A stretch of DNA of 64,000 bases from positions 1 through 64,000 of the forward strand of contig JAXDQU010000118.1 in assembly GCA_034667685.1 (NCBI GenBank). Reading direction: 5' to 3'. Shown in pieces: positions 27,804-46,994 of the stretch. A model generated the notes under the pieces. The model ran no database searches. It had not been told where the DNA came from and saw only the letters and a list, made by a program, of their open reading frames with translations. A program made the position numbers and the translations under genes. Source of the DNA: Thermoplasmata archaeon. Lineage in GTDB: Archaea > Thermoplasmatota > SW-10-69-26 > JACQPN01 > JAJPHT01. The first letter of the stretch is position 1, and every line of letters starts with the position of its first letter.

Positions 27804-27852
27804 CGGCGAGGCTCGCCGGCGCGCGTGGAAAAGGGTTCTCGCCGCGTCCCGC

Positions 27853-28170: not shown

Positions 28171-28194
28171 AGACGCGCAGGCTCTGACCCTAAA
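28171..28194. repeat. Left TSD + left TIR of the transposon
   Basis: AGACGCGCA|GGCTCTGACCCTAAA. Confidence 0.92.
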
Positions 28195-28277
28195 GTGACG
28201 ACTTCCGGGTTGCCCGGCTGATTTTCGGGTCGGCGTTCGGCGCGATGCCGGCTGCAAGAGTGCTGGCGGATGGTCCG

Positions 28278-28478
28278 CTACTTCTTGCCCGCCTTCTTCT
28301 CGGCGGCTTCTTCGTCGTGCTCTCGGAGGGCAGCCCAGGCGACTTCCGCGGCGTGGGTCACCGATGCAAACCGCTTCCCCGGCCCGGTGCGTTCTAAGAC
28401 CCACCCCAGGATCGCGGGATCTGGGGTGATGCTGACCTTTCGCTTCTGGCCATGAGCAACCGCCTTTGCGCGCCCCAT
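28278..28478 (-). CDS. Ribbon-helix-helix DNA-binding protein
   Basis: KRKVSITPDPAILGWV...FASVTHAAEVA pattern of archaeal CopG/RHH regulators; divergent from the small-gene operon. Confidence 0.7.
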   Translation of the reverse strand: MGRAKAVAHGQKRKVSITPDPAILGWVLERTGPGKRFASVTHAAEVAWAALREHDEEAAEKKAGKK

Positions 28479-28651
28479 TGTCCCCCTTAGGGCGACAAGA
28501 GAGTTTAAGGGCCTGGGGGTCTCTGGCCCCCATGAAGCCCCGATGCCCGGCATCGGATTCACCTGCATCCCACTCGGGGGTGGGGCCCGCCTGGTGCGGT
28601 TTCTTCTGGCTGTTTTCTTCGCCGCACGCCCCCCTCTGCTGAGGAATAGGC

Positions 28652-28777
28652 ATGCCGTACCCCGGAACCGACGACTCGTTGATCACCGCGAATCAAGCAG
28701 CGGAACCTTTGTCGCCACCGTCGCCATCTCCGCGCCCGTCTGAGGCGCGAAAGAAGCTCGCCGGGGTGGTCGCGTGA
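28652..28777 (+). CDS. Small hypothetical protein (41 aa)
   Basis: GAGG RBS, ATG 28652, stop overlaps the next GTG (GTGA). Confidence 0.45.
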   Translation: MPYPGTDDSLITANQAAEPLSPPSPSPRPSEARKKLAGVVA

Positions 28778-29100
28778 TCGACGACCCGGAGGACCCGGCC
28801 AAGTTCGTCGGGGACCTCTGCTGGATCGGTTGCCCGCAATGCGAGGGGCCGGTGAACGCAAGGCCCGTTCGCGACCAAGCGGTGCGCGCGCTGCTCCTGC
28901 GAGTCGCTGACCTCATCGAGGGCGGGAAGGTCGCGCAGGCGGATTTCGTCAAGCGGCTGCGCATCATCGCCATCGACCTCTACGAGGGCATGCAGGCGGA
29001 TCTCGCCTTCTCATGCTACCCTTTGGAGATGCTGGATGACTTTGACGCGGGCGAGGACGAACCGGAGGAAGAGGACGAGCCCGCGGGAGGGAGCGCATGA
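28774..29100 (+). CDS. Hypothetical protein with CxxC motif and acidic tail
   Basis: CPQC; coupled to both neighbours by 4-nt overlaps. Confidence 0.7.
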   Translation: MIDDPEDPAKFVGDLCWIGCPQCEGPVNARPVRDQAVRALLLRVADLIEGGKVAQADFVKRLRIIAIDLYEGMQADLAFSCYPLEMLDDFDAGEDEPEEEDEPAGGSA

Positions 29101-29417
29101 ACCAGCCCGAAGGCAGCCCCATTCCCGTGCGCCTGGATGCCGCGCGGTGTCCCAAGTGCGGCATCGGCCTGGACCTCGATCCGCTCCTCATGGCGCGCGA
29201 CCTCTCCATCGTATCCGCCCTCCTCCAGGAACTCGGCATCGTGGACGACGCCTCCCGGCGCGTGAAGGAACTGCTGGACGGCCTCGCCCGCAAGAGCATC
29301 ACCCTCTGCACCGACATTGGGCTCTACGGCTACGACCTCATCAGCGAAGAAGAGGAACCGGAACTACCACCGGGCCGCCGCGAGCCCGAGGACGAGACCA
29401 CCCCTGCTGATGACTGA
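29097..29417 (+). CDS. Hypothetical protein with CxxC motif and acidic tail
   Basis: CPKC; GGAG RBS; ATGA overlap. Confidence 0.7.
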   Translation: MNQPEGSPIPVRLDAARCPKCGIGLDLDPLLMARDLSIVSALLQELGIVDDASRRVKELLDGLARKSITLCTDIGLYGYDLISEEEEPELPPGRREPEDETTPADD

Positions 29418-29568
29418 ACCGCTTGAAGCGCTTCGAGCGCTCTTCTCAGACGCCGCAATCGCCCCCTCCCGAAGGCCCTGCCCCGAACCGGACGGCGACT
29501 CATACCGCGGCGCACCTTCTGCTGTTCCGTGCTTGTGCTCTGTTGCAGACGCAATGGAGCGATTCTGA
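29410..29568 (+). CDS. Small hypothetical protein
   Basis: ATG 29410 overlaps the previous gene end; TGATG overlap with the next gene. Confidence 0.45.
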   Translation: MTEPLEALRALFSDAAIAPSRRPCPEPDGDSYRGAPSAVPCLCSVADAMERF

Positions 29569-29831
29569 TGCCCAAAGCACGCCGCAAGCTCCGCACGGAC
29601 TACCTCATCAACCTCAGCGTCTTGTCGAGCTCACCCGAAGCTGACCGACCCTGCGCCCAAATCGGAGTCATGACGCTGATCCCCCGGATCCGGATCGCTC
29701 ACGGCATAGGCCAGAACTGCGTCACCTTCCGCTATGGCTACGACTTCAAGATCGAAGTGGACCGCATCATCGCAGAACGACTCCGAGACGACTTGACCAA
29801 GTGGCTGGAAAAGAACCCCTGGTCCCGGTGA
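29568..29831 (+). CDS. Small hypothetical protein
   Basis: MPKARRKLRTDY... from ATG 29568. Confidence 0.6.
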   Translation: MPKARRKLRTDYLINLSVLSSSPEADRPCAQIGVMTLIPRIRIAHGIGQNCVTFRYGYDFKIEVDRIIAERLRDDLTKWLEKNPWSR

Positions 29832-30027: not shown

Positions 30028-32838
30028 TCAGGACTCTCGTTCCTGCACTTGGATGGTCCAATGTTCGCCCAGACCCAACTCGGCCAAGACGCGCCGGAGA
30101 TCACGCTCCAAGTTCTCGCGCTCCGTCGTGGGTGTTTCGACCGACACAGAGAGTGTGAGCGACACTTTCTGCCCTTTCTTCAACGTCGGGATGAGCCGGA
30201 CACCCAGTTTGTTCCACGCCTCAGGCGGAAGCGGTCCACTCATATCGATGACCGCCACAGCTCCAGCAGCGCTGTCTTGTCCGATGACGACGGACGGGGA
30301 GTCAGGGGGCGACTGAACCAGTCCGAAGACGACAGCCCCACGGTCTTGCGCGCTCGCATCAGCGGCTTTCGGAGGCGGCGCGGTCAGCACTTGTGCCTTC
30401 GTCTTCAGCAGGAGGAATGTACCTGAGTCGAAGACGACCTCCTCGCTTGGAACCAGTTCCTTGAACCAGACCCGCGTGAACGTCCCATCGTTCAACTGCC
30501 CAGATGCGAGGCCAAACTCCCCGCGCTCGACGAGTCGCGGGAGGTTCGCCTTGAGGGCGCCCTCCGGGTCGGGCAGGCGGGTGAGGCTCCCGTCAAGGAA
30601 CGCTTTCCTGACACCCGCCAGGGGCCAAGCGCCGCTCTCCTTGAGAGCGGTGGGCCAGTTGCGTTCCAGATAGCCGGCCCCGACGCTGTCGCTGAGACGT
30701 CCTTCGCTTCGAAGGGCCGTCAGGATTCGGCCGGCAAGGCTCTCGTTGGCCGAGGAGTGTCCCGCTCCAAGGTCGATGACATGGATGCCGTCCGGGGCCT
30801 TGGGATCGTAGAGGAGGACGTACCGGTATGCGGCCCAGACTTCGTCCTTGACCGCGTCGCTCGCGTTGCGGACGTTGGCACTGACCTCGTTCCTTTCGTC
30901 GGCTTCGAAGTCGCCGCCGAGGATTCCCCGATTGATCTCCTCCTGAACGCGCTTCCACGCGAGGGAGACTTCGATCTTCTCTCGCAGGTCGAGGCCTTCC
31001 TTCTTGAGGACCCACACGAGCGCGCCGGGGTAGAGGCGTGCGTTCGCAGGACTGCGCTCGCGGGTCCACGAGGCCAGAAGCTTGCGTCGGGACTCGCTGA
31101 AGGTGACGCCCGGTTCGATGACGACGGCCGTCAATCGGGGGAGGTCGGGGACTTCCGTGCTGTCGTTGGGGAAGAAGGCGAATTTGAGTTTGTCGTCCTT
31201 GGCGAACTCGGTCTCGATGGCCTTTCGCATGGCCTTCGTGACCTCGATCTCGTCCAGGCTCGCGCGTCGGTCGCCGACGACCTTCTGGAGCTTGGGCTTG
31301 AGGCCGAAACGGAAGCCGTCGCGTCCGACCTTACGGAGGTAGAACGCTCGGGATTCGATGGCGTTCGCGGCGCTGTCGATACTCGTCGTGTCCAGGCCCG
31401 GCTCGCCGAGCGCGAACCGAAGTTCGGGCAGGTGCGCGACCTTGTCGCCCGTCATCCCGCCCGACGACTCGAAGAGGATCGCGGCGGCGACGCGACGGTG
31501 GATCTCGGCAAGCTGGCCCTTCGCGTCTGCGTCGAGCGCGCGGGCGTGGCTGTGCTCGCCCGAGATATCAGAGTCGATGGCCGTGAGGAGACGGTTCTCG
31601 CCAAGCTGTGCGAGCACGGCGCTCCGAAAACCGGAGTCGGCGAGGGGCGCGCTTCCGAGGCTGATGAACGCCTCCTTCCTCGCTTTCTCCCACCCGTCGC
31701 GGTAGGCCCATGAGACCCACTTTGCGAGCATAGCCAGCGTGCCGCGGGTCTGTTGGTATTGCGGCAGGCTCTGCCACTTCCGCTGGAAAACGGAAAGCGT
31801 CGCGGGGTGGAAAGGATAGCACTTGCCGAAGCGACGCGCGAGAGCCTCGCGGGCCGACTTGTCGGTCGCTCCAGCCTCCACGACGGTCCATTCGGGGGGC
31901 AGCTGATTGCGGCGCTCGAAACACCAGTCGGCGTATTCCTCCGCCGCGTGCTGAATCTTCTTCTGCGTCCTGTCGTCGAAATCCTCGAAAAGACGTCGGC
32001 GAACGATCTCGGCGATTTCGCCCTCCTCGTTCACCACGACACTGTTCCCGACGCGCTTGATGACCTTCTCCAATCTTGCTTGCCACTTGTCCTGCCACTG
32101 CTTCTCGAACTCGCCCATTTCGATTTCGCTGCGAGGCAAGGAAAAGATGGCTGCGCACCCCGTCGTGCTCGTGAGGCTTCGCGCGAGGTTGTCCGAGAAC
32201 GCCAAGAAGTCGTCCGCGATCTTCTTGTGGCGGACGATGAGGTTGAGCGTCTCGTCGAACAGAATGAGGACGTGCCCGCCCGCGAGACGGTAGAGCGCTT
32301 CGAGCGTATCCGTGCCCGGCGGCGAGGTCTTTGCTGCCGGACCAAGCAGGCGCACGCCTTCATCGCCCGCAAGCTGGCGCGCGACGTCGATCCATGGGGT
32401 CTCGCGCCCTTCAGTGGGATCCCACGCATTGCCGACGAGGACGGCGACCTTGACGGAGGGCAGTTTGTCGATGCCCTCGGTCATGAGGAGCTTCTGTACG
32501 CCTTCGCTCTTGAGCGAGTCTTGCGGATTCTTCGTGAGGTGGTAGAGGCAGGTGAGCGTATGCGTCTTGCCGCCGCCGAACTGCGTGACGAGCGACATGA
32601 CGGGGCTCGTCTCGCCTGTCTTGCCCGCAAGCCGGCGAAGCACCATGCCGAGGTTCTCGCGAAGCGCGCCCGTGAAGACGGTACGTGAGAAGAACTGCTT
32701 GGGGTCCGTGTAGTCCTTCGGCGAGTTCGGGTCGTTGCGGACGACCTGCTCCAAGCGGATGGCGAACTCGTCTGGATCGAACGAGCGGCCCTCGCGAACT
32801 TCCCGGCGAGGTTCTGCGATCTTATACCACGGTTCCAT
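30028..32838 (-). CDS. DUF499 family AAA+ ATPase (BrxC-related)
   Basis: MEPWY...PR.EV.EG, TQFGGGKTH Walker A, ILFDE Walker B, YPFHP, QQTRGTL. Confidence 0.93.
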   Translation of the reverse strand: MEPWYKIAEPRREVREGRSFDPDEFAIRLEQVVRNDPNSPKDYTDPKQFFSRTVFTGALRENLGMVLRRLAGKTGETSPVMSLVTQFGGGKTHTLTCLYHLTKNPQDSLKSEGVQKLLMTEGIDKLPSVKVAVLVGNAWDPTEGRETPWIDVARQLAGDEGVRLLGPAAKTSPPGTDTLEALYRLAGGHVLILFDETLNLIVRHKKIADDFLAFSDNLARSLTSTTGCAAIFSLPRSEIEMGEFEKQWQDKWQARLEKVIKRVGNSVVVNEEGEIAEIVRRRLFEDFDDRTQKKIQHAAEEYADWCFERRNQLPPEWTVVEAGATDKSAREALARRFGKCYPFHPATLSVFQRKWQSLPQYQQTRGTLAMLAKWVSWAYRDGWEKARKEAFISLGSAPLADSGFRSAVLAQLGENRLLTAIDSDISGEHSHARALDADAKGQLAEIHRRVAAAILFESSGGMTGDKVAHLPELRFALGEPGLDTTSIDSAANAIESRAFYLRKVGRDGFRFGLKPKLQKVVGDRRASLDEIEVTKAMRKAIETEFAKDDKLKFAFFPNDSTEVPDLPRLTAVVIEPGVTFSESRRKLLASWTRERSPANARLYPGALVWVLKKEGLDLREKIEVSLAWKRVQEEINRGILGGDFEADERNEVSANVRNASDAVKDEVWAAYRYVLLYDPKAPDGIHVIDLGAGHSSANESLAGRILTALRSEGRLSDSVGAGYLERNWPTALKESGAWPLAGVRKAFLDGSLTRLPDPEGALKANLPRLVERGEFGLASGQLNDGTFTRVWFKELVPSEEVVFDSGTFLLLKTKAQVLTAPPPKAADASAQDRGAVVFGLVQSPPDSPSVVIGQDSAAGAVAVIDMSGPLPPEAWNKLGVRLIPTLKKGQKVSLTLSVSVETPTTERENLERDLRRVLAELGLGEHWTIQVQERES

Positions 32839-32850
32839 GTCTTTCTCCCC

Positions 32851-34272
32851 TTACATCCGCGTGGGCTTCCAGTTCATGATCTCGTCTTCCGTGCCGAGCG
32901 TCCCGTGGGCAGCGTCGAGCGTAGCGTGCAGGATGACCGCTTGCAGGGCTTGCGCGAGCGCAATTGCGCCCGCCTCTTCGATGGGGCCGACGCCCTCGTG
33001 CGTCCAAGAAGTACGGGCCTCGTAGGCTGCCTCGACTTCAGCCCAGTGCTTGTCGCACCACGTCTTGTCCAGTGCCTCGACGCATCCCCTAAGGCGGACC
33101 ATGGCGGGCCAATCACCTCGGTCACCGCCCTGTTTCGGCGAGCCTTGCTTCTTGAGGAGCGCGGCAGTCGCGGTCACCAAGTCGCGGATGCGGCGACCGA
33201 CCTCGACCCCGGCGGGCTTGGCCTCGCCTCCGGGGAATCGCTCATCGGCGACAAGCACGGGCTGATTCAGCGCAGAGCCCAGCCAATAGGTCGCTGTCGT
33301 GACCCGCTCGGCGGCGACAGTCTTCGGTCGTGCCGTGAGGAGAACGTTGAGCGCTTCGTGCCATCGTCGGGTCGGTTCCGCCCACGAGGCTGGAGCCGAG
33401 ACACGCACTGGAAGGCCGGGGCCCGTCCCATCCGACCACATGGCAGGCCAGAACTCGCCGCTCGCGAAGCGCAGTCGCCAACCGTGACGGCGTTCAATGT
33501 TCTCACCCTTCAGCGCGACGACCTGTCGACTCCTCTCCTCGAATCGCCCACCTGAAAAGAACTTCAGGACCGCGAGCGCGAAATGGGCGTCGTCGCGAGC
33601 CTTCTGATATGCCGACTCCGGGGAGCCCCAAGCGCGGACATGGAGCACTGCGTTCTCGGAGTAGTCGTCCTTCTTCCCATTAGGTCGCAGTTCCGATTCG
33701 AAGATGAGCATGTTTGCGGTTGTCGCGCCCTTGTCTTGTTCGCTCTCGTTCGTGCGGGCGACCGCCGCTACCACCTCCCCGCAGTATCGTCGCCATTCTT
33801 CGCTCGTGAGGGATTTGAGGGTAGCAGTCCCGATGCGAACGACGCAGCCTTCCTCAACGGACACGTTGTCCAGCGGGATGACGAACTCATACTCCCGGAG
33901 ATGCCGCTCCAAGGTATCGATGAACTCTTCGAGTCGCCCTCCAAGGTCCGCGTGAGGCTCCTTGACCTCATCGGCAAAGACCCGCTCAAGGGCGTCAAGA
34001 CGCGAGCGCGCCGAGAAATGATCACTGGCGATCTTCGACCACGGTAGTTCCGCATCGGCGCGGGCCAGCGTCGCGAGGTCGTGTGCCGTCAAGTAGCGGT
34101 ATGGCCAATAAGGCGAAACGCGCACCGCCCCGCCGCTGTCAATCGCCCCAAACGGCGAGTCGATGGGGAGACCGTTCCTCAGCCGCCCACGTTCGTCTGC
34201 TTCACGCTGACGGACCGCTGCTGCGAGTTCTCGAATGATTTCAGCGGCGCTGGTCGTGTCCATCACCATCAC
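32851..34272 (-). CDS. Putative HEPN (ApeA-like) RNase effector
   Basis: C-terminal YEARTSWTHEG = R-x4-H HEPN motif in a helical domain; ATGA-coupled inside the defence operon. Confidence 0.7.
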   Translation of the reverse strand: MMVMDTTSAAEIIRELAAAVRQREADERGRLRNGLPIDSPFGAIDSGGAVRVSPYWPYRYLTAHDLATLARADAELPWSKIASDHFSARSRLDALERVFADEVKEPHADLGGRLEEFIDTLERHLREYEFVIPLDNVSVEEGCVVRIGTATLKSLTSEEWRRYCGEVVAAVARTNESEQDKGATTANMLIFESELRPNGKKDDYSENAVLHVRAWGSPESAYQKARDDAHFALAVLKFFSGGRFEERSRQVVALKGENIERRHGWRLRFASGEFWPAMWSDGTGPGLPVRVSAPASWAEPTRRWHEALNVLLTARPKTVAAERVTTATYWLGSALNQPVLVADERFPGGEAKPAGVEVGRRIRDLVTATAALLKKQGSPKQGGDRGDWPAMVRLRGCVEALDKTWCDKHWAEVEAAYEARTSWTHEGVGPIEEAGAIALAQALQAVILHATLDAAHGTLGTEDEIMNWKPTRM

Positions 34273-37200
34273 CTCGGCATCGCGAGCAGCATGGCTTCCA
34301 CGAGCCTGCGTTCATCCGTTCCCTTCGGGTAGAGCGCGGCGAGCGCGTTCGCGAGGCGCTCGAAGTCCGGCCCGCGCCGCTTCTCGTCCGCCAAGAGCGA
34401 CCGCAGCGCCGCCGTCTGTCCGCTCTGCTGCAGGAGCATGGCGGCGTGGACGCGGTCGAGCGTCGTGACCTGCTTCGAGCGGTCGCCCGCGGCGTCGTCC
34501 CCGACGGTCGCCTTGGCCTTCTTTGCGCCCTTTTTCTTCGCAGGCGCGCCGGAGGGCGGCGGCTCGTCCGGGAAGAGCGTGAGCTGCACGCCGCCGCGCA
34601 GGTTGCTGCTTTCGAGTTCCCCAACAGCCGCTTCCGCGCCGCCCGTGCCGAATAGCTGCTTCATGCGCTCGCTCACGGGGAGGAGGCGCACGACGCCCTT
34701 GTCCGTCTCCGAGATCCGACCTTCCCACGTCTCCAGGTGGATGCCGAGCGGCTGCGCGAAGCGGCGGACCACGTCGTAGGGCAGGGAGAAGCCCTTCTTC
34801 TTGGCCGACTTCCCGCTGCCTTCCTCGCCGTCGTCGGCTTCTTCGGCGGCTTCTTCCGCATCCGGGCCGCCACCGCTGTTCCCATCCTCGCTCGCGGTAC
34901 CTTGCAGCGCCCACAGGAAGAGCGCCGTCAAGCGCGCATCCTCTTCGAGCGCCGTGCCCGCGCCGCCGGTCTTGCCCAAGACCTGCTCCAACGCGAGTCG
35001 GCCCACGACCTCCCACACCTTCGCGAGGTAGCCCTGCTTGTAAGGCTCCGACGCCGTGGGGTCGCCACCGAGCGGAATCTCGCGATCCTCCGCGTCCACG
35101 ACCTTCGAGTAGCGGCTGTAAACCTCCATCGCCGGGCCGATGCACGCAAAAACGAGATCCGCGCCGCGCACGCCTTCGTTGTCGAGGCGATCCATCCACG
35201 CGCGGACTTTAATCGGAAGCTCGCGCGCCACGTTGGCCCAATCGCCCTCTGTGGCTGCTTCCTCGCGAGGTCGACAGATGAGATGGATGCTCGTTGCCAG
35301 AGCAGCGGATTCGCGAGCGCGTAATCGCGTGGCCATCTCGGTCGCGATGGGCCATGAACCTGTGATGACCCACCCGTTCTTAACCATACCCGATAGCAGA
35401 GCCTCCCAGCCCTCAGTTGTCTTGTGGGCAAAGACCACGCCCCCTACTCCATCCTCTCGAAGGACGCGGCGTCCCTCGGAGAACGCCTTTGCCATAGTCT
35501 TCTCGAAGAACACCCCATCCTTTGGCGTCCCATCTACCTCGCGCGCCTCGTCCATGCGAGCCTCGCGACGCTTTGGAGTCAGGACGTTGGAAGCATCGTC
35601 GCGATCTCTGAGCAGAGGGTGGCCGGGAAGGTCCCGCTTCAGCCAGATGTAGAATACATCTGAGAGGTCCGAATAAGGCACGGCGTCGTAATAGGGTGGA
35701 TCAGAGAACCAAACGGAGGCGCTTGCATCCGGAAGTGGGGACGCAGTCGCGTCTTCCTGCTCGACGCGGCCGGGGCGATCGCACCACGTGGCAAGTTGCT
35801 CAACGCACTGTGCGACCACTTCAACGCCATCCGAGAAGCTGCCGGTCGAATCAGAAATGGGCACAGCCTCGGCGAAGTCCCACTCAAGCGAGAGGGCTTG
35901 CCTGACGAACATATGCTCGACCTTCTCTTGGTCGGCTTGATAGCGCCAACTACAGAGGGAAGATGATCGGCTGGCGACGCGATCCAGAACGAGTGCGAGA
36001 AGCTCCTTCACATTTGGCTCCGCGCCGGATTCTCGGACCACCTCACCAAGCGTCGCAAGCGTAAGCTTTTGCCGGGAGGTGTAGAGCTTCCCGAAATCGT
36101 CGATACCGTACAGGTGAAAACGGAATGGTGAGTTCTTCGCCATCTTCGCTTGCACGACTGGCTCGTTCGGGAGCGTCGGGATCCCGGGTACAATAAATGT
36201 TGAGCGCAGCTTGGCTGCCGCCGCCTGTGCGAGTTTAACCGCTTGATAGTCTCGTTCGCTGGCGAGGCGATACTGGCGACCGGTCGCGCTGGGAGTTAGA
36301 CAAACCACCGCCAGAAACCGGGCTCCGCCGATTCGGCGGTCCTGCGGATCGAACCGCACCTCTGCACCGCCCGCTTGGTCCCGAAGTTGAGGTCTTACTC
36401 GCTCGACTCCAAGGGTCACACCGCAAGATGGGCAGGTTGCCTTTCCTCCCGCAACAGTTCCCTTCGCAACGTCGCCCTCCTTCTTCGGCTCGAAGATCTC
36501 AAGCTGTCGTTCCGCGCCGGGCTTGGCGCTCTCAACGAAGCGCAATGCGCGTCGACGGCTCGCCTTCTTGCACAGCCACATTGACCGGATGAGAGGGATC
36601 TCTGCGCCGCAGTTCGGGGATTCACACCGCACGGTACGTGCCCAAAGGTAGGCGATGGGCCGTGAGCCGTCCGGATCTATGGGATAGAAGTCTTCGAGCC
36701 GCTTGTCTGCAGTCGATCGGATTGATTGAGCGACATTCCTCAGTTCGTGTGCAAGCTCGGGGCCAGCGCGAGGAATGTTCTCAAGGAGGTTCTTGAGAAT
36801 AATGCAAGCCACAGGATTGAGGTCAGAGGCGAACGTGTCGCATCCCAATCTCAGGGCTTCGAGCGGGATGCTTCCGCCACCTGAGAACGGATCCACAACC
36901 AGGGGAGCTTCATCGCCGTGGGCTGCGCGTACAAGCGTTCGGGCTGCTTTTAGATAGGCGTTTTTGGCGCTGTTGTTCCAATCAGCAAAGTCGCCGATGA
37001 ACTTTAGGAGCGCTTCGCGCAGGTCCACGTCCTTCGGTCCGATGCCCGTGAGCGTGCGCGGGAGCGCGGCGCGCGCCTTCTCCTTGAAGTCGGTGGGGCA
37101 TGCGGGGTCGCACGGGTCCGGAAGGAGGAGCGCCATGAGGACCGCGCGCGAGGACGCAAGCGGGCGACGCGCCCACCACAGGTGAAGCGTGGACGGGTGC

Positions 37201-37298: not shown

Positions 37299-37765
37299 TT
37301 CATGGGCTCCACTTGCAGCAGCTTGGCGATGTAGGCTTGGGGGAGCCCCGCGTCTCGCGCGCCGTCGATGATTAGTTTGAGGTAGGCTGCGCTCGGGACG
37401 TGGACGCCAGGCTGCGGGTTCGCGAAGTAGGTCCACGCGCAGACGGGCGCGCTCGGGTCGCCGTCTCGAAGCACCGTCGCTTCGCGGCGCTCGTAGGAGT
37501 TCTGAGCGGGAGAACGGCCTGCCCTGTAGCCCTCGTGCTTGTCAAGGCTCCTAAGGTCCTCTGCGTCAAGTTCGAAGAGAACGCCCCATGCAGTCTCGCC
37601 AGTCGCTGGAACGAGGCTCGACACGCCGCACTGGCGGTTGGTGGAGAATCGAGGAAACGCGAGGCGGTGGTCGGGGAACGCTGCCTTGCCGACGCGCTTG
37701 GCGTTGGGGCAGCGCTCGCGCATCTGCGATTCGGCCATGTTTGAGCCGTAGGCGAACGCGAGGAT
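37295..37765 (-). CDS. Gamma-glutamylcyclotransferase-like protein with non-canonical (ATC) or mutated start
   Basis: (I)LAFAYGSNM, WGVLFEL, LDKHEG, PSAAYL..I..GA motifs; the conserved N-terminus lies upstream of the first ATG. Confidence 0.85.
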   Translation of the reverse strand: MLAFAYGSNMAESQMRERCPNAKRVGKAAFPDHRLAFPRFSTNRQCGVSSLVPATGETAWGVLFELDAEDLRSLDKHEGYRAGRSPAQNSYERREATVLRDGDPSAPVCAWTYFANPQPGVHVPSAAYLKLIIDGARDAGLPQAYIAKLLQVEPMK

Positions 37766-40700: not shown

Positions 40701-41170
40701 ACGATAAGGACGCGCTCGGCAAGGCCCCGGAGTTTCAACTCCCGAAGGAGAAGGCCCGACATGATGGTCTTCCCCGCGCCCGCATCGTCCGCTAGGAGAA
40801 AGCGGATCGTCGGGAGTCTGAGCATGTGGTCATAGACGGCCTCAAGTTGGTGCGGGAGGGGATCCACCCGGCTGATGCTCAGGCCAAAGAAGGGATCGAA
40901 TTCGTAGGCAATCCCGAGCGAGTAGGCGCTGATCCCAAGACGCAGGAGTGTGCCGTCGCCGTCATAGGTCGCGGTTGCCGAGCGGATGGTGACGCGAGCG
41001 AGCTGGTCGCGCGTGAGACGCACGCGGGTGAAGCGCTCGGAGCGTCGACCTGAGAGGCCAAGAGTCCAAGCATCAGGACCATCCGGTGTGACCGTCTCAA
41101 CTCGCATGGGCTCGTTGAAGAGGTCGCCCTCGATGACTTGGCCGGCCTCGATACGAACGAACTGCTCCAC
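37766..41170 (-). CDS. SNF2-family helicase with C-terminal DUF3883 (PD-(D/E)xK) nuclease domain
   Basis: LADDAGAGKT, IIDEAH, LTATPH, GEGINLQ, EQRMGRIHRYGQ; C-terminal GYDITS...IEVKG. Confidence 0.95.
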   Translation of the reverse strand: MEQFVRIEAGQVIEGDLFNEPMRVETVTPDGPDAWTLGLSGRRSERFTRVRLTRDQLARVTIRSATATYDGDGTLLRLGISAYSLGIAYEFDPFFGLSISRVDPLPHQLEAVYDHMLRLPTIRFLLADDAGAGKTIMSGLLLRELKLRGLAERVLIVTPANLTFQWQRELKDRFGEQFVVLRGGELRSQFGVNPWKENKQILTSLDLAKREDVLPGLKQVEWDLVIIDEAHRMSASSEDKKSERYRLGELLRDHAGNILLLTATPHKGDPVNFTLFLQLLDRDAFAHVRSIEEAMKNGVAPFYLRRTKEAMKFFPEQGADGLWRARNLFTKRIPRTASFNIDGDEYALYASVTNFVRRMSHRAAAQAQDDPRARATGFLMALYQRRLASSTYALRQSLERRADLLEKKLSRADDFLKDNPTDIPDADEMEEMEAGEREAMEKKVEAVVLTQNRQFISEEVSQLRQLALQAQDVMNTGEEAKLARLEHLLTDEGFIRNKDQRLLIFTEFKDTLDYLVETLRKWGLTVGFIHGGMKPGSRDEPGTRLFMEQQFREGAVQILVATEAAGEGINLQFCNQMVNYDIPWNPNRLEQRMGRIHRYGQTKDCLIFNFVATNTIEGKVLERLLERLQEIRDALDSDSVFNVVGEVFPAAHIERVFRDYYAGKLGDAEVEDAVLEPATEQKFRQIATNTLEQSLAKRTLNLPMLLERRAIAQERRMVPETIARFLVDTSNLANLSLKPLASMPHTYDPGPTPPELRRFETRAEWRLPSVATRYPRITTDRLVAEKERSLEWVTPGHPLFEALRLHTWEAAQPHFANGAAFFSLEHQAPARLDFYRARVVDGTGRTVHERLFAVEVAENGDARLRDPTALGDLMPAKKPADLPKVATLPEPTDFLNREPLAAFLSEVSMERIAEVDRVAKHVEIALTELISKEDDKIGRFALAKESGVEGAAGFLAQAENRHAELMSRRDLRRAELAKQRHLTLQGVERLTNVLILPHPDRDRPDIRNLRQDKETEEIAMRYVIEHERSQGREVFDVHEKNLGYDITSIDLKSGELRLIEVKGLGASEGNILLTPNEYRIAQDRRDCYWLYVVTGCKQPTQNLKPIKDPASKPWIGVSKVQHYTLSTRELEGGR

Positions 41171-41686: not shown

Positions 41687-42439
41687 CTATGAAGTGGTTT
41701 CTCCGTCCTCTTCGTCGTTCCGAATCTGACGATCGCGGGGTAGGCCATAGGTCGCGCGGTAGGATTCGACGCTGCCGTGGATCATGGGGTTGTACGGTGG
41801 CCGCTTCACAAGGTCGACCGGACGACGCGCCGCCGAGCGTGCAGATCCGGGGACACGGGCAGCGGCAAAGCCCAGGCGTAGGAGGAACGCCTCAGGCGGC
41901 TGCCGCAGTTCCTTCACCAACGCATGAAACAGGAGACTCGGCGGTCGGGACGCGGACTTCTGCGGTCCCGCTGGCGGTGCTGCGGGCGGTCTCGTAGCGC
42001 GACGACGTGAGACCCTGTTCGTCAGAGGAAGATCTGGAAAAGGCCCCAGCGTCTCGACGTCCACGAGCGGCTCCTGGGCAACGGGCGACGGCCACGCCAT
42101 TTCAGAAATGAACGGCGGGGGCTCCCCAGGATCGACCATGAGCTGATGCACAATCAGGTCTGTCGGGGTGAGCCGCTCGCTGGGAACCGTCCAGGGCGAA
42201 GGTAGAGCGCGTTTGGCGGTTGGGAGGTTCGCTGGGTTCTTTGCGCACTTGCCCTGGTGAGGGGGGAGCTTGTGCGGTTCGAACTTCAGGCCGCACCAGC
42301 GGCAGGGCGGGTCGGGGTTGTCGTCGCAGCGCTGCTTGTGCCGCCACATCGCCATGTGGTTCTTGCACGTCCAGCCGCAATGGGGACAATCTTCGGGCTG
42401 CGTGAGATCGCGCGGCAGCGCACATGCCATCTCAGGCAT
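41687..42439 (-). CDS. Protein with two tandem C2HC zinc fingers and a Pro-rich tail
   Basis: CPHC-x12-H-x3-C and CRWC-x11-H-x3-C; the C-terminal half is of uncertain coding status. Confidence 0.6.
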   Translation of the reverse strand: MPEMACALPRDLTQPEDCPHCGWTCKNHMAMWRHKQRCDDNPDPPCRWCGLKFEPHKLPPHQGKCAKNPANLPTAKRALPSPWTVPSERLTPTDLIVHQLMVDPGEPPPFISEMAWPSPVAQEPLVDVETLGPFPDLPLTNRVSRRRATRPPAAPPAGPQKSASRPPSLLFHALVKELRQPPEAFLLRLGFAAARVPGSARSAARRPVDLVKRPPYNPMIHGSVESYRATYGLPRDRQIRNDEEDGETTS

Positions 42440-43103: not shown

Positions 43104-44480
43104 ATGGCGCGGCATGTCGCGAAGTCCCGCCCGCCAGGGCTCCCCATTGCAGAAATGGCTTCCACCGCGGACCTCGGTGTCCATGCCGTCCACGCGCGCT
43201 TGGGCAGCGACGAGGACGCGCCCGAGATCCTCATCGAGCCCGGCCGCTTCAACCGCGCCGTGAAACTGGCAGAAAAGCGTGGGCAGATCATGCGGCAGCG
43301 CGACTTCTACCGCGTCCGCAGCCAAAGCGGCGGCGGGAGCTACATGGTCGAGGAACAAGGCCGCTTGTGGCTCTGCGAGTGCGCCGACGCGTCCCCGCTC
43401 CGCCCGTGCCAGCATGTCTTGGGCGTCCTCCTCTACCTTGACGTGCTGCCCTTCCCGCACGAGGTAGGGGAGCCCGTCAAGCCGCAGCCGGGTGGCGGGG
43501 TCGATTGGGCCGCCTATGTCAAGGCGGAGCGGTCGCTTGGCGAGCAGATGCCTCGTTTCGCGTGGCGCCTCTTCGAACAGCTACCTACACCGGAGCGCTT
43601 CGGCCGCGGCCGTCCGCCAATACCGCAGACCGACAGCCTGCTCTGCGCGCTGATGTGGAGCATCAGCCAGAAGAACGCGCGGCAAGAGCAAGCGACACGC
43701 GACCGTCTCTTCGAAGACGGACTGCTGAGTCGCACGGTCGCACCGAACGACGTGAGCCGAACGCTCGTGGACAAGGCGACCACACCGCTGCTGCAAGAAG
43801 CCCTACGGCGAAGCCGGGAGCCATTCGCCGCGGTTGACGCGGAATCCTCGCCCTTGACGCTGGACGTCATGGGAGACACCTTCGCCGTCGATTCAACCGG
43901 CTTCACGCCCTCCAGGCGCGGCCACTACAACACAAGCAAGCATGGGCCTTCAACGCCGCTGCCCTGGCTAAAGTGCCACCTGATGATCTCGACCAAGGCG
44001 CACTTAATCACGAGCGCGCGGATTACGAGCAGCCACGGCAAAGGAACCGGCGACTCATCGCAATTCGCCCCGCTCCTGACGGAAACGGCGGAAGAGTTCC
44101 CCGTTGGCGTAATCGTGGGCGACGGCGCGTATGCCAGCCGCGCAAACGTCACCGCGGTTCGGGACGTCGGCGCGAAGCCCTTCTTCCGCTTGGCGAAAAA
44201 CACGATTTCAAAACAGCTTGGCGCACCTGGATGGGCGGACATGGTAGCGTTCTTCACGCTGCACCGCGCCGAGTTCGACCGCATCTATCACAGGCGGTCA
44301 CTCGTGGAGAGCGTCAACAGCGCCATCAAGCGCCGCTTCGGAGAATCGTTGAGGAGCAGGACCGCCACGAGCCGCGTCAACGAGTTGCTGTGCAAGCTCC
44401 TGGCCTACAACCTCGTGGTCCTTGTGCAGCAGCTCCACTTCCTGCACGCAGAGGACGAGTGGTTGGACCGCATCCTCTGA
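43104..44480 (+). CDS. DDE transposase (IS4/IS5 superfamily fold) with N-terminal SWIM zinc finger
   Basis: CECAD...PCQH (SWIM); AVDSTGF, WLKCH, GDGAY, YHRRSLVES..S.IKRRFGE.LRSR. Confidence 0.92.
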   Translation: MARHVAKSRPPGLPIAEMASTADLGVHAVHARLGSDEDAPEILIEPGRFNRAVKLAEKRGQIMRQRDFYRVRSQSGGGSYMVEEQGRLWLCECADASPLRPCQHVLGVLLYLDVLPFPHEVGEPVKPQPGGGVDWAAYVKAERSLGEQMPRFAWRLFEQLPTPERFGRGRPPIPQTDSLLCALMWSISQKNARQEQATRDRLFEDGLLSRTVAPNDVSRTLVDKATTPLLQEALRRSREPFAAVDAESSPLTLDVMGDTFAVDSTGFTPSRRGHYNTSKHGPSTPLPWLKCHLMISTKAHLITSARITSSHGKGTGDSSQFAPLLTETAEEFPVGVIVGDGAYASRANVTAVRDVGAKPFFRLAKNTISKQLGAPGWADMVAFFTLHRAEFDRIYHRRSLVESVNSAIKRRFGESLRSRTATSRVNELLCKLLAYNLVVLVQQLHFLHAEDEWLDRIL

Positions 44481-44519
44481 TGCGGCAGGACTTTCAAGCG
44501 GTACGAGCGATGCGGCTGC

Positions 44520-45509
44520 GTGGAAGGCGCGGACGAGGCGAAGGCGCTTCTGAAGGGCGTCGAGTGGTTCTATCATTGGGAAGACGAGCGGGGCGAGCGG
44601 CGGCGCTTGGAGGTGTGGTATCGCCTGCGCGTGGGCTCGCAGGCGCGGCGGCAGGTCGTCGTGCCGTGGAGCGATTTGGAGGCGAGCGTGCGTCGTCGCC
44701 TAGATGCTCTCGTGGCGTGGGTCATGCCGCAGCTTCCCAAGCCCGCATCCTACGAGATCATGGGCCGCCGTCACGAGCCGCGCCTGAGCTTCGACTACCT
44801 CTTCCTGCACGTTCACGGCGAGACAGACCACAAGGACCCCTTGACGGTGGGTTCCTGCGTGTGGACCGCACCGGGCAAGAACGACCCGCAGCGCGATCAA
44901 TATTGGAGGGCGGACCAGCTCGCGGGAGAGGTTGAGGAAATCCGCCGCAGCCTCGTTCCCCTCGCGTGGCGCGTCGTCTTGGCCGATGTGGCCCAAACGC
45001 ACGAGGTTCCGCCAAAGGAAGCCCGACCCTATCTTCCGCTGCTCGTGTACGTCGCCTATCGCGCCCCCACGGGGGAACGCCTCGCGCGAAGCATCACGGA
45101 CTACCTTTCCGCGCGGGGGCTCTTGCCGTGGTTCGATCAGGAAGTCATCGGCACAGGCGATTCTCTCACCGAAGCGATGCGGCGCGGCATCATGGATTCC
45201 AGCGCGGCCGTCGTCATCTTCACCCCCGACTTCAAGGACGGGAAGAACCTGCGGCTGGAAATCGAGCAGATCAACGCGCGGCTGCAACGCGATTCCGACT
45301 TCAAGCTCATCCCGGTGCGCGTCGGCCTCAACCATGATGAGCTTCCGCCGCTGCACGGGAACCCCCGCTCGGAATACGTCCACGATGCCGATGATCCCAA
45401 GTTGACCGACGTCCTCGTTAACGTCCATCGCGGAATCCTTGGCATGGCCCGCAAGGAAGGCGAGGGAGGAGCCGAAGGCTCAATCGACGTTGCGGGTGCG
45501 CAACGATAG
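44520..45509 (+). CDS. C-terminal TIR-domain protein
   Basis: VYVAY...PWFDQEVIGTGDSL...IMDSSAAVVIFTPDF...RLEI (catalytic-position Glu)...LIPVRV. Confidence 0.85.
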   Translation: MEGADEAKALLKGVEWFYHWEDERGERRRLEVWYRLRVGSQARRQVVVPWSDLEASVRRRLDALVAWVMPQLPKPASYEIMGRRHEPRLSFDYLFLHVHGETDHKDPLTVGSCVWTAPGKNDPQRDQYWRADQLAGEVEEIRRSLVPLAWRVVLADVAQTHEVPPKEARPYLPLLVYVAYRAPTGERLARSITDYLSARGLLPWFDQEVIGTGDSLTEAMRRGIMDSSAAVVIFTPDFKDGKNLRLEIEQINARLQRDSDFKLIPVRVGLNHDELPPLHGNPRSEYVHDADDPKLTDVLVNVHRGILGMARKEGEGGAEGSIDVAGAQR

Positions 45510-45536
45510 GACGCGCCGCTTGGTGGCGGCGGATCG

Positions 45537-46466
45537 GTGGAGGTCGCGGCAAACTACCCGCGACGTAAGCCCGGGCAGGGTGAAATCGAAAGCTTGACTC
45601 TCCCCGCTTGGGCTGCCGCGGTCTTGCAGGCGGACTTCTCGGAATCCACCTTCGGATTCGGCGTGGCACACGCGATCCAGCGCGTCGCTGACACCAGCAA
45701 GATGGGGCCACCCATCTTCCCCTCCCTGCGGCAGGAGAAACGCCTCGGCTTCGACGTGGCCTTCCCCGGCCTTCACTTGTTCCTTCAGTTCAAGCTAAGC
45801 CAACGCATGACGCGGGCGAACGCACTCCAATGGAAAAGCCACTGGAACAAGGAATACCTCCGCTTCGACCTGCGCCACAAGTCGCCCCGCGACTCGCAGC
45901 ACAACCTCCTCGCGCGCTTCAGCGCGTCGTTTCCTTACTTCATCGTCCGCTACTGCGCACCCCTGTTCGTCTCAGGACGCGACTTCACGACGTACCACGT
46001 CCGCCGGACTCTGTTGGAAAACTGCCTGTGGCTCGACCCCGCCCGCCTCGGGACGCTGAAGGACCGTGATCGGCATTGCGTGACGTTCCTCCGCGACGCC
46101 TCCGGCGTGACCTACCACCGGCACTCGGAAGAAGAAACGGGCGGACGAGCCGCCTTCGCGGAAGAGGACTTGCGGGGCGCCATCGCACAGCACACTGAAA
46201 CGCACCCGCTGGAGCGCCGCCGCATCGACGCAAGCGAAATCCGGCGCGTCCACGGTACGCTTCTTCAGATGGCGCAGGAGCGGTATCACCAGCTCGCAGA
46301 AACGGGCACGCGAGCCGAGCGGAAAATGGCAACCGAACGCCTCTCAGTCTTGGGCGAGCCTCGGACGGACGTGAAGCCGCGGGAGCTTGTGGAACGGATT
46401 TCGCTCCTGGCGAGCGTGGAGCTTGGCGCCGAGTGGATCATCCTCCCCGACACCGGGGAAGCTTAG
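45537..46466 (+). CDS. Putative PD-(D/E)xK restriction-like nuclease (start may be ~45624)
   Basis: FPSLRQEKRLGFDV...LFLQFK = E...D...QxK pattern. Confidence 0.65.
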   Translation: MEVAANYPRRKPGQGEIESLTLPAWAAAVLQADFSESTFGFGVAHAIQRVADTSKMGPPIFPSLRQEKRLGFDVAFPGLHLFLQFKLSQRMTRANALQWKSHWNKEYLRFDLRHKSPRDSQHNLLARFSASFPYFIVRYCAPLFVSGRDFTTYHVRRTLLENCLWLDPARLGTLKDRDRHCVTFLRDASGVTYHRHSEEETGGRAAFAEEDLRGAIAQHTETHPLERRRIDASEIRRVHGTLLQMAQERYHQLAETGTRAERKMATERLSVLGEPRTDVKPRELVERISLLASVELGAEWIILPDTGEA

Positions 46467-46542
46467 GGGTGATTCGGTCGCCGGGCAGCCGACCGCTTGC
46501 CCCCAAGCAGGCTTTTAGACCCGATGTTTTCCCTTCTGCGTC

Positions 46543-46773
46543 GTGGCGAGCGCGGAGGCGCGGGTATCCACTGAGTCCGGGCGAGCGCACGCCCACGCCG
46601 TCAGCATCCTGGCGCGCGAAGCCGTCGCCCTGGCGCGCGAAATCCAGCACGGCCTTCCCCACCCCGACCCCGCCGTGGAGCACGCCGCCGCCCTCGCCCG
46701 TGAGACGGCCGCGACCCTGGAAGTCCTCTGCCAAGGCCCCGCCTGCCCCTCCGAAGCGTACCGGGAAGCCTAG
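46543..46773 (+). CDS. Small hypothetical protein
   Basis: 76-aa helical ORF with GC3-biased codons. Confidence 0.4.
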   Translation: MASAEARVSTESGRAHAHAVSILAREAVALAREIQHGLPHPDPAVEHAAALARETAATLEVLCQGPACPSEAYREA

Positions 46774-46970
46774 CCGCGATCAGCGCCGCCAGCGTCGCCT
46801 TGGCCGTCGCCAAGCAGGCCCTCGCGGACCAACGCAACCCGCCCCCGACGCCGACCTGCCGGCTTCAGGTGGAATAGCCCCCGGCGCGCCGCCCCCTGGG
46901 GGCACCCATGAACCTTTCCACTCCATCGGGGCTTTCGGGTCAGCCCGGCGTTTTTCGGGTCGGCGGTGAG

Positions 46971-46994
46971 TTTAGGGTCAGAGCCAGACGCGCA
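46971..46994. repeat. Right TIR + right TSD of the transposon
   Basis: TTTAGGGTCAGAGCC|AGACGCGCA. Confidence 0.92.

Follow-up and report, generated by a model that had tools for sequence, protein, structure and literature searches.

A probable 18.8-kb unit transposon with one IS903-like transposase and defence cargo in a Thermoplasmata archaeon

Introduction

Cargo-carrying DNA transposons were long believed to be missing from archaea, and the Discussion of a 2019 paper (PMC6563490) places them among the elements 'not detected in archaea'. We asked what kind of mobile unit, if any, is represented by an 18,806-bp segment with 13 ORFs that lies in a 64,000-nt window (the whole stretch of DNA analysed) from a Thermoplasmata archaeon. 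A first-pass annotation had proposed a giant unit transposon derived from an insertion sequence (IS), moved by a SWIM-finger DDE transposase and loaded with defence genes. The ends of the segment, its single transposase and a set of 17 delimited elements, this one among them, all support that proposal. Our analysis indicates that the segment is very probably an autonomous, non-composite DDE transposon that was inserted as one unit. The reading extends to predicted binding of the ends by the transposase, plausible mobilisation of a partner element in trans and, with moderate confidence, targeting of promoter edges.

Ends and boundaries of the element

The segment is bounded by a perfect 15-bp inverted repeat, GGCTCTGACCCTAAA, at 28180-28194 on the plus strand and 46971-46985 on the minus strand. 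These are its sole exact copies in the window, and the similarity continues inward over 20 nt (Table 1). The 9-mer AGACGCGCA lies directly outside both ends and occurs just these two times in the window. Since the 9-mer by itself is expected 1.57 times per window by chance, its adjacency to the ends is what matters. Among 100 Markov-shuffled versions of the window, inverted repeats of at least 12 bp with flanking direct repeats of at least 7 bp appeared four times (0.04 per window), once with a 9-bp flanking repeat; the real pair combines 15 bp with 9 bp. The perfect GGC-initiated repeats and exact target-site duplication claimed in the first-pass annotation are confirmed.

Both junctions are spanned with zero differences by independent Logan contigs of two soil runs, which are possibly the source samples. 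The element sits between two divergent host genes, as had been described: a minus-strand ORF, whose start is at 28107 or 28134, and, from 47047 onward, a plus-strand ORF with a signal-peptide-like start. Its GC content (about 0.59-0.69) contrasts with that of the flanks (0.71-0.75) and of the genome (0.711).

Comparison with relatives, the check suggested for an empty site, yielded no empty allele: the flanking genes are not conserved in four same-genus genomes, and contig-level reads gave no clean joint. A second copy of the exact 18.8-kb element was not found in the genome, which counts against direct proof of full-length movement. The intact ends are consistent with the recent movement that had been suggested and are the one observation pointing to it.

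Table 1 Features of the element and its edges, in window coordinates. L014 is the closest related element; C17 is a contig of the same genome with a second element.
Feature	Position	Strand	Remarks
Left copy of 9-bp target-site duplication AGACGCGCA	28171..28179	.	
Left terminal inverted repeat	28180..28199	+	Begins GGC; 15 bp perfect, 18/20 over 20 nt
Left subterminal region	28202..28235	.	Two more copies of the terminal-repeat core (GACCC[G/T]AAA-like), inverted relative to the terminal copy; read in sequence
orf96, small protein	28278..28568	-	No known family; 49% identical to same-end ORF of L014
Three small ORFs (108, 106, 100 aa)	28774..29831	+	No family match
HmaC (DUF499 AAA+ ATPase)	30028..32838	-	PADLOC HmaC E 1.6e-87
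473-aa protein, between hmaB and hmaC	32851..34272	-	No known family
HmaB (DUF1156 DNA methylase)	34269..37298	-	PADLOC HmaB E 7e-108
AIG2/GGACT-like protein (gamma-glutamylcyclotransferase fold), between hmaA and hmaB	37295..37738	-	
HmaA (SNF2 helicase, C-terminal NOV_C nuclease-type domain)	37766..41170	-	PADLOC HmaA E 1.1e-171, full length
250-aa Cys/His-rich protein	41687..42439	-	N-terminus conserved beside transposase in L014 and in C17 element
Transposase	43104..44480	+	N-terminal extension with CxCx8CxH, then IS903-like DDE body
TIR-domain protein	44520..45509	+	TIR_2, residues 176-278
309-aa protein	45537..46466	+	No known family
Right subterminal region	46932..46965	.	Two more copies of the terminal-repeat core, oriented as the terminal copy
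Right terminal inverted repeat	46966..46985	-	
Right copy of 9-bp target-site duplication AGACGCGCA	46986..46994	.	
Host sequence beyond element	46995..47008	+	GGAGAA (purine-rich hexamer), then TGCTTATG (weak TATA-like box)

The transposase

The transposase gene is single-copy in the 3.48-Mb genome. Its distances to the left and right ends of the element, 14,924 and 2,505 bp, agree with those first estimated. A composite transposon would have two IS copies as its ends; here there is one transposase gene, 14.9 kb and 2.5 kb from the ends, and the gene map has no space for IS copies at the termini, whose absence had also been pointed out. A scan of the nine larger ORFs and the four small left-end ORFs detected no further domain of a transposase, integrase or resolvase, nor any Tn3-type transposase or resolvase or TnsA, TnsB or TnsC (Pfam, E 0.01 for the nine larger ORFs and E 0.05 for the four small ones).

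The protein has 458 residues, with a DDE triad at D263, D340 and E402 and a Y-R-E-K signature formed by Y395, R398, E402 and K409. An N-terminal extension of 130 residues holds a SWIM-type CxCx8CxH motif (C91, C93, C102, H104). None of these residues varies among the 12 close homologues compared. Pfam gives no SWIM call on this protein itself at E 0.01; among 85 homologues, 15 have a precomputed PF04434 (SWIM) match. The transposase belongs to a clade with 57-68% internal identity and at most about 40% identity to the remaining homologues. Its AlphaFold model is poor, with a pLDDT of 60 overall and below 50 in the catalytic part.

The DDE_Tnp_1 family (PF01609) matches the protein at E 3.3e-18. 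The best NCBIfam model is NF033579, which scores 112.3 bits over the catalytic half only and thus falls below the curated IS5 cut-off of 140 bits; an IS903-type control transposase scores 338.7 bits over its full length. When the two proteins were aligned, residues 133-445 matched residues 9-302 of the 307-aa control (E 4e-11, 24% identity), and the DDE and Y-R-E-K residues line up. The control IS (locus L082), carried by a plasmid of Klebsiella variicola, has GGCTTTGTTGAATAAATC as its terminal sequence and is flanked by a 9-bp duplication. It shares with our element the DDE_Tnp_1 body, the Y-R-E-K signature, NF033579 as best model, GGC termini and the length of the target duplication. Its ends start GGCTTTG, against GGCTCTG here, and L014 matches its first 9 nt, GGCTTTGTT. 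The control differs in being a 1,055-bp IS with one 307-aa ORF, 18-bp ends and no cargo, whereas the element described here has 18,806 bp, 13 ORFs, a 458-aa transposase with an N-terminal extension, and extra subterminal copies of the end core.

The kinship with the IS903 group of the IS5 family that had been put forward is thus upheld by the GGC ends, the 9-bp duplication and the DDE body, but not by the model score, and the element departs from the group's plan of a single ORF of about 1 kb without passengers. No description of this transposon family was found in literature searches, but 'undescribed class', as first suggested, is too strong because the element falls within the IS5/IS903 lineage of DDE transposons.

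Cargo

Between the left-end genes and the Cys/His-rich gene lies an Hma operon. HmaA, HmaB and HmaC are encoded together, all of full length, with two inserted genes (PADLOC, PMC8565338). For hmaB, whose longest ORF reaches 37436, the likely start codon is the ATG at 37298, which shares bases with the stop codon of the preceding gene (ATGA). By gene content this would be a complete defence operon; its protective role is predicted from one Halomonas Hma system that protects against phage T4 (PMC11232893). In that study, about 66.5% of hma loci are reported to hold inserted genes, and hma operons are described as insertion hotspots. The operon described here resembles these loci in having all three genes in the usual operon and inserted genes, as in about two-thirds of them. 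It differs in lying inside a DDE transposon, whereas the same study links hma to phage integrases (19.1% of loci), and its GGACT-like and 473-aa genes are not among the inserted genes described there.

To the right, the transposase gene, the TIR-domain gene and the 309-aa gene form a tight tandem with gaps of 39 and 27 bp. The N-terminus of the 250-aa Cys/His-rich protein is 47% identical to its L014 counterpart and 36% to the C17 homologue, which has weak C2H2-type zinc-finger matches. At the left end, homologues of orf96 occur in the C17 element and twice more elsewhere in the genome, and the first two of the three small ORFs (108 and 106 aa) encode CxxC motifs and acidic tails. No curated family scores above threshold against the zinc-finger ORF or any of the four small ORFs at the left end. 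The cargo had been described as defence genes plus regulators: the Hma operon and the TIR-domain gene bear out the first part, and the regulators are unproven, as the candidates match no curated family.

Related elements

We delimited 17 homologous elements from many genomes, this one included. They range from 2,386 to 18,806 bp (median 4,258), and the 18.8-kb element is the largest. All have GGC ends, exact 9-bp duplications and extra genes, and none is a bare 1.5-kb IS; a scan of homologue neighbourhoods thus places these transposases beyond small ISs, to which the first-pass annotation had considered they might be confined. Homologues were enclosed by GGC ends and an exact 9-bp duplication at 8 of 16 genome loci, at 6 of 28 metagenome loci examined (43 were found; four of the six are genome-locus elements and two are new) and at 5 of 15 loci of the Thermoplasmata phylum (Thermoplasmatota), in elements of 2,386-15,119 bp. 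Most members measure 2.4-5.5 kb, and other lineages include some of 8.0-8.3 kb. The recurrence of GGCT(T/C)TG termini and 9-bp duplications around homologues assigns the inverted repeats to the family of this transposase, and the family pattern of subterminal end-core copies, 9-bp duplication and cargo is also seen here. DNA methylase or restriction-modification-type domains are present in five of the seven distant elements annotated, and other elements carry unrelated cargo at the position corresponding to the genes beside the transposase.

The closest relative, L014, is a 15,119-bp element of a same-genus archaeon with an intact 9-bp duplication and a transposase 66% identical to ours. Its cargo is different, with defence-like genes of Upx-like and Dsr1-like type. 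The left-end module is common to both elements (49-89% amino-acid identity), and about 1.2 kb of it, the small-ORF region, is about 88-90% identical to L014 at the DNA level; the ends are about 50% identical. A second element in our genome (C17:2210-10543) spans 8.3 kb and has no transposase. Its ends are nearly identical to those of the 18.8-kb element, with 13 of 15 positions matching, it has a perfect 9-bp duplication, CGGCTGGAG, and its GC content is 0.54-0.65 against 0.73-0.78 outside. There is also a solo end on C12.

The size range bears on the alternative that a small transposon of 3-5 kb was inserted here and that Hma and other cargo were added in place, in which case the 18.8-kb unit never moved and may be too large to do so. 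We consider this unlikely. It fits the small size of most family members, the mosaic of a closely shared 1.2-kb stretch with more diverged ends and transposase, the insertions for which hma operons are reported hotspots (PMC11232893), and a third soil run in which pieces of the cargo occur at uneven divergence (0 to about 5%). However, the duplication and the two ends are all perfect, GC is low evenly over the whole element, the 15.1-kb L014 and 8.3-kb C17 elements also have intact duplications, and 8.0-8.3-kb elements exist in other lineages. We prefer insertion of the 18.8-kb element as a single unit.

It is highly improbable that the repeats and duplication arose by chance or belong to another transposase, with the SWIM-DDE gene an ordinary member of a defence island. 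Transposase and element are each present in one copy in the genome, and a 12-bp inverted repeat flanked by a 9-bp repeat turned up in 1 of 100 shuffled windows, but the GGCT(T/C)TG ends with 9-bp duplications accompany homologues in the 17 delimited elements, the ends match an IS903-type IS whose transposase is the nearest curated relative, and the domain scan of the nine larger and four small ORFs offers no other candidate. Hardly any weight can be given to domestication, in which the transposase would no longer move DNA and would serve neighbouring defence genes such as the TIR-domain gene: the single copy and the tight tandem would suit it, but the catalytic DDE and Y-R-E-K residues are preserved without variation, neither the ends nor the duplication shows damage, and relatives hold unrelated cargo at the same position.

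Insertion site

The host sequence next to the right end contains a putative promoter box, TGCTTATG, at +7 to +14 past the duplication and 39 nt before the ATG at 47047; it is not element sequence. The most AT-rich 8-mer in a 40-nt range begins 5-7 nt past the duplication on one side of 6 of 10 archaeal elements, and three elements (L115, L122 and L035) have the same spacing of an AT-rich box as judged by eye. The box next to L014 reads CAAGCG CTTTTATA GGGGG and is kept as CAAGCC CTTTTATA CGGGGG before the orthologous gene in our genome, where no element is present. The box at our element is the weakest of the set. No TATA-like box was seen at the solo end on C12 and no box pattern at five elements from bacteria-labelled MAGs, and the end type facing the box is inconsistent, L035 being opposite to the rule.

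These sequence patterns suggest, with moderate confidence, that this element and most of the archaeal relatives examined insert at the upstream edge of promoters, 6 nt before a TATA-like box. Such insertion would damage neither of the adjoining genes, nor their promoters. The yeast elements Ty3 and Tf1 are eukaryotic retroelements whose integrase is tethered by transcription factors, which directs integration to promoters, at a set small distance from the machinery that initiates transcription, and spares coding sequence. The archaeal elements would resemble them in inserting at a fixed short distance from the initiation site, but they are DNA transposons in archaea and are not known to have a tether.

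A broader reading is tentative, and we regard it as somewhat doubtful. The whole SWIM-DDE family, with this element, would read the archaeal pre-initiation site, perhaps by recognising TBP/TFB-bent DNA or those factors themselves, and place its 9-bp target exactly 6 nt before the TATA box, on the outer BRE edge. The family would then be the first promoter-tethered prokaryotic DNA transposon and a main vehicle for the exchange of restriction and other defence systems among archaea that spares genes. The large clade would represent its 'defence-island-sized' form, marked by a conserved accessory module and by non-autonomous partners mobilised in trans.

Discussion

We propose that the single IS903-like transposase, with its SWIM-type N-terminal extension, drives the element. 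Each end consists of a GGC-initiated inverted repeat of 15-20 bp followed by two core copies, with opposite polarity at the two ends, and insertion duplicated 9 bp of target. By analogy with the biochemistry of IS903 and the IS5 family, the transposase would bind both the terminal and the subterminal sites, with the N-terminal domain as the probable contact, pair the ends, cut at the GGC termini and join them to target cuts staggered by 9 bp. The element has a backbone in common with L014, made up of the left-end small-gene module, the Cys/His-rich protein and the transposase. The variable slots around it here hold the Hma operon with its two inserted genes and the TIR-domain gene with its 309-aa partner. 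The 8.3-kb transposase-less C17 element could plausibly be moved in trans by this transposase.

Tn7 depends on TnsA, TnsB and TnsC with a targeting protein and produces 5-bp duplications, whereas here there is one IS5-type DDE protein with a 9-bp duplication and no Tns-like domain in the thirteen ORFs scanned. Tn7-like transposons carry defence cargo (Benler et al. 2021, PMC8649781; archaeal Tn7 preprint, 10.1101/2025.07.27.667033). They share with our element the organisation as a unit transposon, asymmetric ends and defence-rich cargo; several transposase-binding sites at the ends and a controlled target would be further common points.

One IS5-type transposase is, it appears, enough to carry nearly 19 kb of DNA with a complete multi-gene defence system in it. 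The family is widespread, and its cargo often consists of restriction-modification or other defence genes. This points to a simple and so far unlisted route by which immune systems pass among archaeal genomes and probably among bacterial ones. If it functions in a model host, the family would also be attractive to archaeal genetics as a compact system of one protein and defined ends whose target may be precise and promoter-proximal.

Boundaries and insertion site of the element

The 15-nt terminal sequence GGCTCTGACCCTAAA occurs once in each orientation and has no other exact copy within the window, and over 20 nt the full terminal inverted repeat pairs at 18 positions. The 9-bp duplication AGACGCGCA directly abuts both ends and is absent elsewhere in the window. 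The perfect inverted ends and exact duplication proposed in the first-pass annotation were thus borne out, as was insertion between divergent host genes, which start on either side of the insertion point. Perfect inverted repeats of at least 12 bp with flanking direct repeats of at least 7 bp occurred 4 times in 100 Markov shuffles; compared with these thresholds, the element has a 15-bp inverted and a 9-bp direct repeat. The 18,806 bp inside have a GC content of ~0.59-0.69, with 0.71-0.75 in the flanks and 0.711 in the genome. Lowered GC was also observed outside the element, at 20000-23000 and 47500-49500 (~0.59-0.65 vs 0.71-0.77). In the GC-rich region to its left, within overlapping long ORFs, lies a tract of ~12 GCTGAG hexamers (27002-27097; period 12 in the repeat finder).

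An empty allele, expected in relatives by the first-pass annotation, was not found for the window site, either in same-genus genomes, where the flanks are not conserved, or in sequencing runs, where the search was at contig level only. The two left-flank proteins had no real match in four of four same-genus genomes, and the best same-genus matches of the right-flank protein (33-47% identity) are probably paralogues. Because neither flank is conserved in these genomes, the surrounding region may be a more general variable island. Reads from four soil or rhizosphere runs were all searched as contigs, for which a missing empty-site contig carries no weight. Logan contigs from two of them, soil runs that are possibly the source samples, bridge both element junctions with zero differences. 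No joint at the element ends was present in contigs of the four runs, and the joints that were found had ~20-letter sides at unrelated positions and look spurious. A 224-nt contig from the fourth run tracks the left flank at ~93% identity and ends at 28173, too short for an empty-site call.

An IS903-like transposase with an N-terminal extension

Pfam places DDE_Tnp_1 on residues 259-437 of the transposase. The best NCBIfam model, NF033579 (IS5 family), matched only the catalytic half, at 112.3 bits and below its 140-bit cut-off. We used as a control an IS903-type IS from a Klebsiella plasmid, whose 307-aa transposase matched the same model at 338.7 bits. This control IS has 18-bp ends (GGCTTTGTTGAATAAATC) and the same length of duplication (9 bp) as the window element, but it is only 1,055 bp long, compared with 18,806 bp here. 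In a pairwise alignment, residues 133-445 of the window's transposase paired with residues 9-302 of the control protein (24% identity, E 4e-11). Because these residues already align with nearly all of the control protein, residues 1-130 are an extension. All 12 close homologues compared share the motif C91-x-C93-x8-C102-x-H104 of this extension, together with D263, D340, and E402. Of the 85 homologues found, 15 carry a precomputed Pfam SWIM domain (PF04434), which is not called on the window's transposase. Modelling with AlphaFold2 from an alignment of 12 sequences gave a structure too poor to use (mean pLDDT 60, pTM 0.40), and a Foldseek search of this poor model against the PDB returned nothing below E 0.3.

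Cargo and gene order

Features of the window element and its borders, from left to right
Feature	Window coordinates	Strand	Position	Annotation
Left host ORF	start 28107 or 28134	(-)	left of insertion point	
Left duplication	28171-28179		abuts left end	9 bp
Left terminal sequence	28180-28194	(+)	left end	15 nt
Small ORF, 96 aa		(-)	left end	no family match
Three small ORFs, 108, 106, 100 aa		(+)	next to 96-aa ORF	no family match
hmaA		(-)	hma operon	SNF2 helicase + NOV_C domain; PADLOC E 1.1e-171
AIG2/GGACT-like gene		(-)	hma operon, after hmaA	
hmaB		(-)	hma operon	DUF1156 methylase; PADLOC E 7e-108
473-aa gene		(-)	hma operon, between hmaB and hmaC	no named family
hmaC		(-)	hma operon	DUF499 ATPase; PADLOC E 1.6e-87
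250-aa ORF			between hma operon and transposase	Cys/His-rich
Transposase gene			between Cys/His-rich ORF and TIR-domain gene	
TIR-domain gene			right part	TIR-domain protein
309-aa gene			right part, after TIR-domain gene	no named family
Right terminal sequence	46971-46985	(-)	right end	15 nt
Right duplication	46986-46994		abuts right end	9 bp
Right host ORF	start 47047	(+)	right of insertion point	

Hma is a PADLOC-defined system; Halomonas HmaA is reported to protect against phage T4, and inserted genes to be present in ~66.5% of hma loci (PMC11232893). The two extra genes of the window's hma operon are consistent with this insertion habit. In the protein atlas, only unnamed clusters contain the 309-aa and 473-aa proteins; 14-15% of the members of a single distant cluster bear a HEPN_Apea label, which is a weak lead. 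Two of the three proteins encoded in the 1.2-kb stretch of the left-end module combine a CxxC motif with long acidic tails; an anti-restriction role for them is no more than a guess. PADLOC gave nothing meaningful for orf108, orf106, and orf100 of this module or for the cargo of an 8.3-kb relative on another contig of the genome (C17).

Homologues of the 96-aa protein were also found on two further contigs of the window's genome, at C105:30635-30835 (63%) and C54:4042-4203 (57%). Because no recognisable element ends lie near them, this protein family is not confined to transposons.

We compared window positions 27650-47640 with a soil run from another study (X3), in which short contigs matched scattered cargo with 0 to ~5% divergence. 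A piece of the TIR-domain gene was identical and pieces of hmaB and hmaC were ~5% different, which suggests, at the level of contig matches, that other soils contain circulating related elements or cargo.

Relatives in the same genus and genome

Among 401 Thermoplasmatota genomes, transposase scores above 800 bits were confined to the window's genome (3.48 Mb, 124 contigs, 99% complete) and one same-genus genome, G003, with 83-88% identical proteins. The G003 copy has coordinates identical to those of locus L014, whose record title reads 'MAG: Proteobacteria bacterium ... Centralia_MAG_189'. Transfer of the close clade between domains was rejected, as this 'Proteobacteria' MAG is G003 itself, of the same genus and with archaeal-type RNase P only (68.5 bits, below the cut-off; no bacterial match). 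In the window's genome, RNase P scored 86.2 bits with the archaeal model, above its cut-off of 84, and failed the bacterial model (32.3 bits).

The L014 element is 15,119 bp long, with ends GGCTTTGTTCCCAAAT and duplication CCGAACCCC, and carries Upx-like and Dsr1-like proteins in place of Hma. The four left-end small ORFs are common to both elements (49, 88, 80, and 89% amino-acid identity), and ~1.2 kb containing three of them (window 28620-29830, L014 ~1370-2540) is ~88-90% identical in DNA. By comparison, the ends are ~50% and the transposases 66% identical; the Cys/His proteins likewise resemble each other at the N-terminus (47%). The close clade thus combines a backbone with variable cargo slots, and exchange of its modules has occurred. 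A third clade member (57% identity), on a 4.9-kb contig, has an end, GGCTCTGTTCCTAAAA, that lies 2.3 kb from the transposase.

The relative on C17 (2210-10543, 8,334 bp; locus L080, 2201-10552 with duplications) has ends GGCCTTGACCCGAAA and GGCTTTGACCCTAAA, alike to the window's at 13-14 of 15 positions, and a perfect 9-bp duplication, CGGCTGGAG. Its GC content is 0.54-0.65 vs 0.73-0.78 outside. Its products include a GHKL-type ATPase and homologues of the 96-aa and Cys/His proteins, but no transposase. The best reading is a non-autonomous relative, potentially mobilised by the window's transposase. A further end-like sequence (contig C12:1-144, L081) matches the window's terminal repeat at 13 of 15 positions, 130 nt from the contig start. 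Ahead of it lies a long GC-rich hairpin, and it may represent either a solo end or the right terminus of a third element that the assembly broke.

Each end of the window element holds, within 60 bp, two extra copies of the core GACCC(G/T)AAA; on the left these run opposite to the terminal copy, and on the right they share its orientation. Such three-site asymmetric ends are also plain in distant members (e.g., L016, L021, L022, L023, and L116). Regulated transposons such as Tn7 and Mu typically have several asymmetrically arranged binding sites.

A family of cargo-carrying elements

We identified 85 transposase homologues, eleven at 57-68% identity and the remainder at ~40% or less. None of 1,462 matching PLSDB plasmid records covers at least 80% of the transposase. 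Elements were delimited with a script that seeks inverted repeats around the transposase gene with flanking direct repeats. GGC ends with an exact 9-bp duplication were found at 8 of 16 genome loci, at 5 of 15 Thermoplasmatota loci (from the 401 sampled genomes), and at 6 of 28 metagenome loci, four of which duplicate genome loci and two of which are new; the 28 remain from 43 after 15 short contigs were dropped. Imperfect pairs comprise L020, L043, L045, and L117 (7-bp repeats or off-by-one ends) and L070 (9 bp, AGCC ends).

The scan thus yielded 17 clean elements, including the window's and that on C17, of 2,386-18,806 bp (median 4,258), with the window's the largest. Confinement of the homologues to bare ~1.5-kb ISs, the outcome named in advance as contrary, did not appear (0 of 17). 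Annotation covered ten cargo proteins of seven distant elements. Five of these elements encode DNA methylase or restriction-modification-type domains, and other cargo includes AIPR/AbiU, DUF3800, P63C, and an SDH-type protease.

The flanks of the L015 element (6702-11646, in a Chloroflexota-labelled MAG) hold several perfect TTATCCACA words, the DnaA-box consensus, and this insertion is possibly inside or beside a replication origin. The 2,386-bp L112 element (Thermoplasmatota genome G094) seems to have inserted at the terminus of another member of the family, as a tandem or nested insertion, because its host-side left flank starts GGCTTTGCAC.

Possible position at promoter edges

We surveyed targets by seeking the AT-richest 8-mer within 40 nt outward from the duplications. 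In 6 of 10 archaeal elements, namely the six with GC-rich flanks on the box side, it starts 5-7 nt past the duplication at one end of the element. Such boxes include TTCAAATA, CTTTTATA, TATATATA, TATTTAAA, and TGTAAATA, and the window element has a weaker box, TGCTTATG. A binomial estimate (3 of 40 positions, two sides) gives ~1e-3, a rough figure with the spacing window chosen after the data were seen. In the C17 element, the TATA-like TTCAAATA sits 6 nt outside the left duplication; L115, L122, and L035 have the same spacing, judged by eye. On the box side, genes point away from the element, and in the window an ATG follows 39 nt past the box, with GGAGG between. The pattern was not seen in five elements from bacteria-labelled MAGs. 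By the BRE/TATA consensus, these boxes are putative promoters.

The box beside the G003 element reads CAAGCG CTTTTATA GGGGG. The orthologous gene in the window's genome (83-88% amino-acid identity), with no element, has CAAGCC CTTTTATA CGGGGG upstream. The left flank of the G003 element aligns with the terminal part of a 13.6-kb contig, so this counterpart is half an empty site only. No promoter consensus for the window's genome emerged from three crude attempts, in which upstream sets were still coding or the pattern was scarce (23 matches vs 19 in the control). The window element, L016, L021, and L116 agree on which end type faces the box, but L035 does not, and such a rule was dropped. We regard promoter-edge targeting by the SWIM-DDE family as tentative, with somewhat less than an even chance of being right.

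Place of the element within its family

We found no published description of the SWIM-DDE family in full-text literature searches. The main text of a 2026 census of archaeal insertion sequences contains none of SWIM, passenger, or IS903 (PMC13343696), and a 2010 survey of mobile restriction-modification units contains none of IS5, IS903, SWIM, or 9-bp (PMC2853133).

The first-pass suggestion of a new class of transposition was not upheld, the element being a member of an IS903-derived family. The main inference of that annotation, that defence genes of an archaeon here ride on a giant transposon derived from IS903 and served by a single transposase, holds. No larger member is known of this apparently undescribed family, within which the window element represents a distinct clade. 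New here are its size and Hma cargo, the conserved backbone module common to the same-genus element, the transposase-less partner within the same genome, and independent support for the promoter-edge position.
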